Assembly (NCBI GenBank): GCA_016931515.1
Contig: JAFGEQ010000002.1
Location: 26,278 to 90,277 of the forward strand
Source: a candidate division CSSED10-310 bacterium
Lineage (GTDB): Bacteria > CSSED10-310
Reading direction: 5' to 3'
Length of the DNA stretch: 64,000 nt
Shown: positions 48,990 to 49,496 of the stretch, piece after piece
Layout: each line of letters begins with the position of its first letter
Position numbering within the stretch: the stretch's first letter is position 1
Notes under the pieces: model-generated
What the model saw: the letters and a program-made list of their open reading frames with translations, nothing else
Databases searched by the model: none
Told to the model about the DNA's origin: nothing
Translations under genes and position numbers: made by a program

Positions 48990-49496
48990 CTAGGCTGGAG
49001 TCTGCATGGATTCAATGAGTTCACGAGTAATCATTGATAAAACTCGTGCCCGTGAGCTGAGTGAGGATTCATCATCCGGATCCAGATCTATCGCCGCCTT
49101 CAAATCTTCTGCAGCCTTATCAAAGCAATTAAGCTTTAAATAAACTTCCGCGCGATTGGTCAGGGCGGATATATCTTCCGGATCAGAGTCAACTGCCCTA
49201 TTGAAAAACTCGACAGCCTTCTCCAGTTCACCGTCTCTTGCTGCAATTGTTCCCAACGCCGTCTGAACGAAACTGTCATCATGGCCGAGAGCATTCAATC
49301 CCTGGAAAATCAGCCGGGCATCCTCGTACTTACCTTGATTGAATAGTTCATAACCAACAACTGATAAATTACTGAGATCCTGTTCTGAAAGTTTAAATAC
49401 GTCCTTCAGTTTCACTCCGCTCATCAGCACATGAGTCAACTCATCTGAAGTCAATGGATCTCCCCGATTGATTTTTTCCTGGACTATTGCGTTCAT
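48990..49496 (-). CDS. TPR protein resembling class II type III secretion chaperones (LcrH/SycD/PcrH/SicA family)
   Basis: 168 aa, the same length as LcrH/SycD, with three TPRs. The segment YELFNQGKYEDARLIFQGLNALGHDDSFVQTALGTIA parallels, from memory, the LcrH/PcrH segment FNQYQSGKYEDAHKVFQALCVLDHYDSRFFLGLGACRQ, with the shared GKYEDA core. Confidence 0.6.
   Translation of the reverse strand: MNAIVQEKINRGDPLTSDELTHVLMSGVKLKDVFKLSEQDLSNLSVVGYELFNQGKYEDARLIFQGLNALGHDDSFVQTALGTIAARDGELEKAVEFFNRAVDSDPEDISALTNRAEVYLKLNCFDKAAEDLKAAIDLDPDDESSLSSRARVLSMITRELIESMQTPA

Follow-up and report, generated by a model that had tools for sequence, protein, structure and literature searches.

The Myxococcales-type group of type III secretion systems (T3SSs) has been placed at the root of the non-flagellar T3SSs and has been reported to be without homologs of the secretin, SctF, tip, and translocon (PMC3459982). 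Prey lysis by Myxococcus xanthus depends on its "needle-less T3SS*," for which no substrates have been described (PMC10849154, PMC12075869). Here, we describe a T3SS locus in candidate division CSSED10-310, for which the sole genomic description that we found mentions flagellar genes and not type III secretion (PMC8248873). The window analyzed is a 64,000-nucleotide (nt) stretch of contig JAFGEQ010000002.1 from a CSSED10-310 bacterium. The gene in question, TPR168, encodes a tetratricopeptide repeat (TPR) protein of 168 amino acids (aa), for which the existing database label is just "tetratricopeptide repeat protein." TPR168 is a divergent relative of the LcrH/SycD (class II) chaperones and not a formal member of the corresponding family model, TIGR02552; on balance, it probably acts as the chaperone of the neighboring orphan protein, orf204. 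Such a chaperone is unsurprising in itself, and its value lies in the candidate substrate of a basal T3SS lineage to which it leads.

48990..49496, minus strand: TPR168, ATG open reading frame (ORF) of 168 codons, three TPRs and a capping helix

The ORF is preceded by an AGGAG ribosome-binding site located 8 nt 5' of the ATG. Its start methionine is shared with all 14 close homologs (61–73% identity), 13 of which are also 168 aa long. An original prediction, which was made from the DNA sequence alone and did not state the strand, had reported this ORF as a 168-aa TPR protein and a candidate class II chaperone. The ORF is real and lies on the minus strand, and its length does equal that of LcrH/SycD. 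The proposed three-TPR layout is likewise confirmed by the AlphaFold model built from the family alignment, which is all-helical (predicted local distance difference test score [pLDDT] 89; predicted template modeling score 0.78). In this model, short N-terminal helices precede TPR1, the three helix pairs occupy residues 38–53/57–69, 75–87/91–104, and 109–121/125–138, and a long capping helix spans residues 145–165. This arrangement fits the SycD-type plan of approximately 150–170 aa with three TPRs and an extra C-terminal helix (PMC3443056). TPR168 also passes Pfam gathering scores (TPR_2, 58.5 bits; TPR_1, 58.3 bits; TPR_16, 54.8 bits), and these matches to the canonical 34-residue TPR describe its fold class, not its function.

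The local resemblance to class II chaperones exceeds that expected by chance. Among 18,950 NCBIfam models, TIGR02552 (LcrH_SycD) is the best for TPR168 (76.3 bits, E = 1.8e-21), with a single matching stretch over profile positions 3–131 of 136, and the next family, MamA (43.5 bits), is 33 bits behind. TIGR02552 also ranks first for six other members of the TPR168 family, including the most divergent (58–71 bits), again with one stretch over almost the whole profile. When residues 1–89 were compared with the PDB, the matches included PcrH (E = 6e-4), SycD (9e-4), AcrH (0.026), and IpgC (0.03). All seven best matches (E = 6e-4 to 0.04) were class II chaperones (PcrH, SycD twice, AcrH, and IpgC three times), and the first generic match followed at E = 0.64. 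In the phmmer alignments, residues 35–83 of TPR168 align to SycD (2vgx/2vgy) and residues 34–82 to PcrH. The SycD string in this alignment, NQYQSGKYEDAHKVFQALCVLDHYDSRFFLGLG, has 15 of 33 identities to TPR168 by hand count. It is exactly the local LcrH/SycD match that had been given in the original prediction, and PcrH matches in the same stretch. The "GKYEDA core" that had been singled out in the same place is indeed present, but is not diagnostic alone, as it is near the generic TPR consensus (GDYDEA in the designed protein CTPR3). Furthermore, a pairwise BLASTP alignment of TPR168 with SycD spans 122 residues, has no gaps, and shows 26% identity (E = 9e-9). In a MAFFT alignment, the TPR168 family runs collinearly with SycD, AcrH, and PcrH and needs hardly any gaps, starting in the segment before TPR1 and continuing into the capping helix (22–27% identity). 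At the structural level, Foldseek comparison with the PDB placed AcrH at ranks 1–2, PcrH at 4–6, IpgC at 8, and SycD at 12–15. Class II chaperones account for 11 of the top 16 matches (TM-scores 0.73–0.84, target-normalized), and designed consensus TPRs interleave with them in the list.

Several results weigh against a straightforward class II assignment. The 76.3 bits of TPR168 fail the trusted cutoff of TIGR02552 (104.8 bits), whereas SycD and PcrH score 163.4 and 145 bits, respectively. Moreover, the generic TPR controls CTPR3 and a 353-aa multi-TPR protein encoded in the window reach 53.8 and 79.7 bits on this model, and the raw score was dropped as proof of membership because such controls reach 54–80 bits. 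These two proteins cover the profile only partially, and TIGR02552 ranks 12th and third for them, respectively. In addition, hhalign of the TPR168 family scored higher against CTPR3 (99.0%, E = 3e-18, 98 columns) than against the class II alignment of SycD, AcrH, and PcrH (97.9%, E = 6e-13, 127 columns), and designed TPRs lead PDB sequence searches with the whole protein. Because of these last two results, TPR2 and TPR3 of TPR168 are taken as essentially consensus TPRs, and the class II signal as located in TPR1 and the segment before it and in the overall architecture. The original prediction had held that best matches to generic TPR proteins with no preference for the LcrH/SycD family would speak against it. 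The former were found, but a class II preference remains, which derives from TPR1 and the segment before it, from collinearity overall, and from gene context. The candidate class II designation thus holds insofar as class II chaperones are the nearest natural relatives by sequence and fold and the gene is part of a non-flagellar T3SS operon, and does not hold as formal membership at the TIGR02552 cutoff. The TPR168 clade would go undetected in threshold-based surveys that rely on TIGR02552 to define class II chaperones.

Of the three kinds of TPR chaperone that serve T3SSs, TPR168 is clearly closest to class II. The SctY model NF052415 gave TPR168 39.5 bits against a cutoff of 70 bits (YscY, 112 bits; CTPR3, 47.1 bits). 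The YscG model TIGR02508, on which YscG itself scores 200.7 bits, did not match TPR168 among the best 25 of 30 NCBIfam families at E ≤ 1. With hhalign, the family reached 13% (E = 0.0021, 57 columns) against YscY (SctY) and 1.7% (E = 0.028, 55 columns) against YscG, and no SctY or YscG structure was present among the top 50 Foldseek PDB matches. Based on the model scores and the hhalign values, sequence membership of TPR168 in SctY or YscG was rejected. TPR168 resembles class II chaperones such as SycD in its size, its succession of N-terminal segment, three TPRs, and capping helix, its location in a T3SS operon, and its best natural fold matches. It also differs from them in other respects. 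First, helix 3A carries an invariant ALTNR(A/G)E that is peculiar to the family (ALTNRAE where FPFHAAE stands in class II chaperones). Second, the TPR168 gene follows that of its putative client and directly precedes sctV. Third, the host is an uncultured and probably free-living anaerobe.

The structure of SycD with YopD provides a list of the residues that form three pockets for the P/VxLxxP anchor of the client (PMC3443056). These groove residues were mapped to TPR168 through the MAFFT alignment with SycD, AcrH, and PcrH, using a SycD sequence that equals PDB 2vgx over residues 20–163 save one position. Six are kept in character (SycD to TPR168: Phe44 to Tyr49, Tyr47 to Phe52, Tyr52 to Tyr57, Phe59 to Phe64, Tyr93 to Phe98, and Arg146 to Arg151). 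Tyr49 places an aromatic residue at position 9 of TPR1, where consensus TPRs have Asn, and Arg151 of the capping helix is invariant in all 14 aligned sequences. However, five groove residues are changed (Tyr40 to Ser45, Leu74 to Thr79, Gln81 to Ala86, Ala82 to Arg87, and His109 to Asn114). The helix 1A aromatic ladder of SycD (Tyr40, Phe44, and Tyr47) is therefore aromatic at two of three positions in TPR168, the equivalent of Tyr40 being Ser45. Judging from this alignment, the class II groove signature appears to be only partly present in TPR168.

TPR168 belongs to a minus-strand gene array that extends from sctU to sctV, with the following genes and promoter sites:

50257..51336, minus strand: sctU, export-apparatus switch protein (PF01312, 321 bits; TIGR01404 SctU, 301 bits versus FlhB, 293 bits)
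49524..50138, minus strand: orf204, orphan 204-aa protein, candidate secreted client (no Pfam or NCBIfam match)
46918..48984, minus strand: sctV, export gate, FHIPEP family (TIGR01399 hrcV, 689.6 bits versus FlhA, 616.6 bits)
50209..50236, minus strand: sigma-70 promoter before orf204 (TTGACA-16-TATAAT, 12/12 consensus match)
51341..51369, minus strand: near-consensus sigma-70 promoter-like site before sctU (11/12)

In the PDB, the SctV protein matches YscV (464 bits) better than SsaV (398 bits) and FlhA (334–370 bits), and its closest relatives outside the phylum are the SctV proteins of Myxococcus and other Myxococcota (45–46% identity). The database version of this protein begins four codons later and has 684 aa. 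Because SctV scores as non-flagellar and is nearest to its Myxococcus homolog, the system is, judging from sequence comparison, a Myxococcales-type non-flagellar T3SS. A flagellar origin was ruled out for sctV based on the same results, whereas sctU alone is ambiguous in this regard (301 versus 293 bits). The T3SS lineage of myxobacteria thus occurs in candidate division CSSED10-310, where the T3SS genes are scattered.

The genes of this array are separated by 118 nt (sctU–orf204), 27 nt (orf204–TPR168), and 5 nt (TPR168–sctV). The gene order sctU-X-TPR-sctV-FHA, in which X is a protein of 196–241 aa, is kept in every related locus that is long enough to show it. This includes the locus in GCA_964512995.1, in which the module is conserved within a quite different genomic neighborhood; the 2.9-kb contig of locus L008 shows only a sctU fragment, X, and the TPR gene. 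A perfect promoter occurs at the equivalent position before the orf204 homolog in loci L001, L002, L005, L010, L011, and L012. Since a perfect and conserved promoter sits in the gap before orf204, the genes orf204, TPR168, and sctV probably form one transcription unit with its own consensus promoter. Perfect promoters are also found before sctU in L001, L002, and L010–L012. The sites in related loci include L001 8118–8147 and 9267–9295 and L005 9900–9927. T3SS genes are normally under tight regulation, and the promoter consensus found here is unusually strong for such genes.

The orf204 family has nine representatives in 1.84 billion proteins, and all members with a readable neighborhood are encoded directly upstream of the TPR gene. 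The family alignment shows a Gly-rich conserved N-terminus, an invariant P-A-x-Q-F-x-L-x-x-P block, an S/G/Q-rich linker of variable length, and a C-terminal helix. This helix (residues ~164–204) is almost invariant (MFELAVKIxxIQHQAAMSAIRGIKY); the last ~35 residues are near-invariant across species, whereas the rest of the protein is 35–59% identical. The block contains the motif F64-x-L66-x-x-P69. All 16 homologs compared have F-x-[LM]-x-x-P with its first residue at 63 or 64, and the motif is also kept in four more distant members. Positions 1, 3, and 6 of the motif are conserved at 100, 94, and 100%, compared with 56, 75, and 50% for positions 2, 4, and 5. This pattern of conserved anchor positions and variable spacers is the signature of the P/VxLxxP translocator anchor, which is located at residues 65–70 in IpaB, 58–63 in YopD, and 49–54 in PopD (PMC3443056). 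The hydrophobic-x-L-x-x-P motif of orf204, a putative anchor near residue 65, lies about as far from the N-terminus as in these translocators. orf204 lacks a transmembrane segment, its 19-residue hydropathy peaking at 1.35 in the N-terminal part, and Pfam and NCBIfam searches gave no translocator homology and no SctX match. The AlphaFold2 model of orf204 alone is helical and disordered with a pLDDT of 55, except for the C-terminal helix (~80), and the motif falls in a non-helical stretch of this low-confidence model. These features agree with a chaperone-dependent substrate but do not fit a classical translocator.

One further protein, P0039 (L006 268–630), touches on this family. This 120-aa metagenomic protein, encoded on a contig of 962 bp, has only the C-terminal helix in common with orf204 (E = 3.5e-4). 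Its sole Pfam match is a weak one to T3SS_needle_F (PF09392; E = 0.098), in register with the C-terminus.

The M. xanthus cluster (L018) provides the closest point of comparison. Its gene order is sctRSTU–159 aa–TPR 158 aa–193 aa–125 aa–DUF1521 388 aa–TPR 168 aa–TPR 154 aa–sctV–FHA. As in CSSED10-310, TPR genes lie between sctU and sctV, and a convergent FHA gene comes after sctV. The differences are that Myxococcus has three TPR copies instead of one, with other neighbors (the 159-aa orphan and the DUF1521 protein), and that sctRST precede sctU, whereas these genes are located elsewhere in CSSED10-310. The small M. xanthus TPR proteins are the closest relatives of TPR168 outside the phylum, with 35% (154 aa), 32% (158 aa; over 130 residues), and 28% (168 aa) identity. 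The 158-aa protein (MxTPR158) scores 122.2 bits on TIGR02552, which is above the trusted cutoff, whereas the remaining two, at 75.5 and 70.4 bits, are similar to TPR168. TPR168 can thus be placed in a clade of chaperones related to LcrH/SycD that typifies this T3SS lineage, and one protein of the clade is a formal member of the family.

No homolog of orf204 was detected among the proteins of the Myxococcus cluster. The L018 TPR genes are located at 3765–4241, 7304–7810, and 8464–8928, the gene for the 159-aa protein (Mx159) at 3281–3760, and the DUF1521 gene at 6078–7244. Two of the three TPR genes directly follow an orphan gene or the DUF1521 protein gene. DUF1521 is the domain present in NopE1, a rhizobial T3SS effector. 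Mx159, encoded directly before MxTPR158, has LRLPLP at residues 66–71. These M. xanthus TPR/upstream pairs look like unrecognized chaperone–substrate pairs. The same cluster also contains two identical 74-aa ORFs (L018 5590–5814 and 7982–8206, both on the minus strand), which are needle-sized and have the C-terminus ...NLMKKLNEIAMSVIGKI; their duplication is odd. These ORFs were considered as a possible link from orf204 to needle proteins and rejected, given the lack of matches to the orf204 C-terminal profile or Pfam and the low hhalign values (0.6% and 2.2%); the comparison with needle proteins gave 0.6%, with no statistical support.

Taken together, we consider it somewhat more probable than not that TPR168 is a cytoplasmic chaperone of the LcrH/SycD lineage that holds orf204 by an anchor peptide in its concave groove and delivers it to SctV. 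The concave face of TPR1–TPR2 would grip the extended F64-x-L66-x-x-P69 anchor of orf204 through Tyr49, Phe52, Tyr57, Phe64, and Phe98, together with Arg151 of the capping helix. This grip would equal that of SycD, PcrH, and IpgC on the P/VxLxxP anchor of translocators. Binding may keep the mostly unstructured orf204 soluble and secretion-competent until its delivery to SctV, and orf204 itself would be a secretion substrate particular to this lineage instead of a canonical hydrophobic translocator. In addition to the sub-cutoff score, the stronger consensus-TPR matches, and the groove changes described above, further points weigh against this explanation. The orf204 motif opens with Phe, where the translocator anchor has Pro or Val. 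A loose form of the motif arises at residues 45–80 in ~5% of shuffled orf204 sequences, and because of this chance rate per single sequence the motif argument rests on conservation, not on occurrence. The loose motif in Mx159 arises in 17% of shuffles. Finally, the chaperone gene precedes its clients in classical systems, whereas TPR168 follows orf204.

The main alternative, which we entertain tentatively and regard as unlikely, is that TPR168 is a functional analog of SctY and orf204 is SctX-like, so that the two form an export-gate accessory module and not an effector or translocator pair. TPR168 would then shield the C-terminal helix of orf204, and this helix would dock to the cytosolic ring of SctV and make the gate competent, with orf204 being exported afterwards. 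The gene order in Yersinia and Pseudomonas is yscX-yscY-yscV, which is mirrored by the probably co-transcribed order of small protein, TPR, and sctV found here. YscY is likewise a three-TPR protein, and every CSSED10-310 locus has one orf204/TPR pair per sctV. The near-invariance of the orf204 C-terminal helix also has a parallel in SctX, the conserved C-terminal helix of which inserts between SctV protomers (PMC9163089, PMC10233624). However, TPR168 scores lower than CTPR3 on the SctY model and reaches only 13% against YscY with hhalign, orf204 lacks a SctX match, and the Foldseek top 50 contain no SctY. Moreover, TPR168 has a class II-type N-terminal extension and is ~50 residues longer than SctY (168 aa versus ~115 aa), and SctX/SctY have been reported in the Ysc family only (PMC9163089). 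If the client did prove SctX-like, this confinement of SctX/SctY-type gate accessories to the Ysc family would need to be revised. Anchor-in-groove binding and gate docking could also be compatible, with the groove holding the anchor and the C-terminal helix docking to the gate.

It is improbable that orf204 is a needle-, filament-, or tip-like subunit and that TPR168 caps its polymerizing C-terminal helix as YscG does for YscF. TPR168 does resemble the large class III subunits YscG/PscG/AscG as a TPR-like T3SS chaperone, and the YscG type holds the C-terminal helix of a small early substrate. These subunits are TPR proteins structurally near class II (PMC13466201). The amphipathic C-terminal helix and variable-length linker of orf204, as well as the T3SS_needle_F match of P0039, which has the orf204 helix, fit this explanation. 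In contrast, hhalign of orf204 with the needle alignment gave less than 1%, with either the family or the C-terminal profile, the C-terminal profile has no PDB match at E ≤ 10, and orf204 has no Pfam or NCBIfam match, such that a SctF-like needle, rod, or filament identity was rejected as unsupported. The candidate client is not detectably a needle protein. Furthermore, TPR168 has no YscG-model match among its 25 best families and shows 1.7% with YscG in hhalign, no YscE-like partner gene is present near TPR168, and the Myxococcales-type lineage has been reported without SctF (PMC3459982).

It is likewise improbable that TPR168 is a true class II chaperone whose clients are hydrophobic SctE/SctB translocators encoded elsewhere, with orf204 being unrelated or a secondary client. 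The sequence and fold preference of TPR168 for class II agrees with such a role, and given the scattered T3SS genes the translocators could be located outside the window. A paralog of TPR168, P0015, is also encoded after genes for 432-aa and 191-aa uncharacterized proteins on another contig. However, no translocator-like gene was found in the window or any related locus. A scan of the genome collection for TPR168 paralogs beside translocators yielded, besides unrelated generic TPR proteins, no module other than this one, which was present in five CSSED10-310-type loci of four metagenome-assembled genomes. The strict co-conservation and probable co-transcription point instead to orf204 as the partner. 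The binding of hydrophobic translocators, which had been part of the original prediction, is thus unsupported, as the adjacent orf204 has neither a transmembrane segment nor translocator homology and the nearest T3SS lineage has been reported without translocon homologs (PMC3459982, PMC10849154).

Finally, it is very improbable that TPR168 is a generic TPR scaffold with no chaperone role and resembles LcrH only because short TPR proteins look alike: consensus TPR designs are its best sequence and profile matches and generic TPR proteins reach similar raw TIGR02552 scores, but its place within the sctU–sctV operon is fixed in all loci and Myxococcus, its N-terminal half matches only class II chaperones in the PDB, its collinearity with these extends over the full length including non-TPR segments, and a M. 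xanthus paralog exceeds the TIGR02552 cutoff.

The finding of a class II-like chaperone beside a conserved orphan in a sctU–sctV operon provides a concrete candidate substrate of a basal T3SS and suggests a recognition rule, in which an anchor peptide is held in a TPR groove. What is new is a sub-threshold chaperone variant with an orphan partner, in a phylum and a T3SS lineage without a described chaperone–substrate pair. A broader proposal, which we hold with considerable doubt, is that orf204/TPR168 and the Myxococcus pairs are the first identifiable chaperone–substrate modules of the basal "needle-less" T3SS lineage and that orf204 represents a new class of secreted proteins. In this proposal, orf204 could be a SctX-type gate plug or adaptor, or a primitive membrane-active or axial component, and would be recognized via a hydrophobic-x-L-x-x-P anchor and a TPR groove that were later used for translocators. 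If so, class II-type chaperoning would be older than the translocon and the needle, and the Myxococcales-type lineage would reach beyond Myxococcota into an anaerobic candidate phylum.

Two further genes, both on the plus strand and convergent with sctV, accompany the module:

46408..46902, plus strand: "mini-SctD," FHA/YscD-cytoplasmic domain with a C-terminal transmembrane helix (PF00498, E = 6e-17; PF16697, E = 1.5e-12)
46148..46426, plus strand: 92-aa protein with two hydrophobic helices (no Pfam or NCBIfam match)

The mini-SctD protein has a single transmembrane helix and no periplasmic ring-building domain. The start codon of its gene is uncertain, and the transmembrane tail is visible in the translation. 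Synteny of the gene holds across all related loci and extends to M. xanthus. A second copy of the FHA domain occurs in L003 (316 aa), L007 (236 aa), and M. xanthus (356 aa). The 92-aa gene is likewise syntenic across the related loci; a gene for a protein of 92–94 aa is present at the equivalent place in L001–L005, which makes it a conserved member of the module.

The remaining scanned genes of the window are housekeeping genes, apart from a few of possible relevance. A gene at 36726–41861 (plus strand) encodes a 1711-aa fusion of a Ser/Thr kinase, an AAA/STAND-like domain, TPRs, a sigma-54 activator domain, and a helix-turn-helix domain, and it is followed by a PP2C phosphatase gene at 41922–42776 (plus strand). 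In L001, L002, and L011, the kinase fusion and phosphatase genes are likewise found next to the T3SS module. A kinase/phosphatase/FHA switch is known from type VI secretion, and by analogy the kinase fusion, the phosphatase, and the FHA protein may possibly constitute a T3SS regulator resembling that switch. The window also encodes two more TPR proteins, at 53965–55101 (plus strand) and 31826–32887 (minus strand). One is a fusion of TPRs with a transglutaminase-like core, and the other is the 353-aa multi-TPR protein mentioned above. Both have sizeable yet partial LcrH_SycD scores, a model that readily picks up generic TPRs. In M. xanthus, a 353-aa TPR protein gene adjoins the FHA gene (L018 13313–14374).

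The paralog P0015 (Logan ERR12037362) has 155 aa, 42% identity to TPR168, and an LcrH_SycD score of 69.7 bits. The products of the 432-aa and 191-aa genes that it follows both lack Pfam matches, and the 6-kb contig contains no sctV. This contig may represent a second chaperone–client operon with a larger, translocator-sized client.

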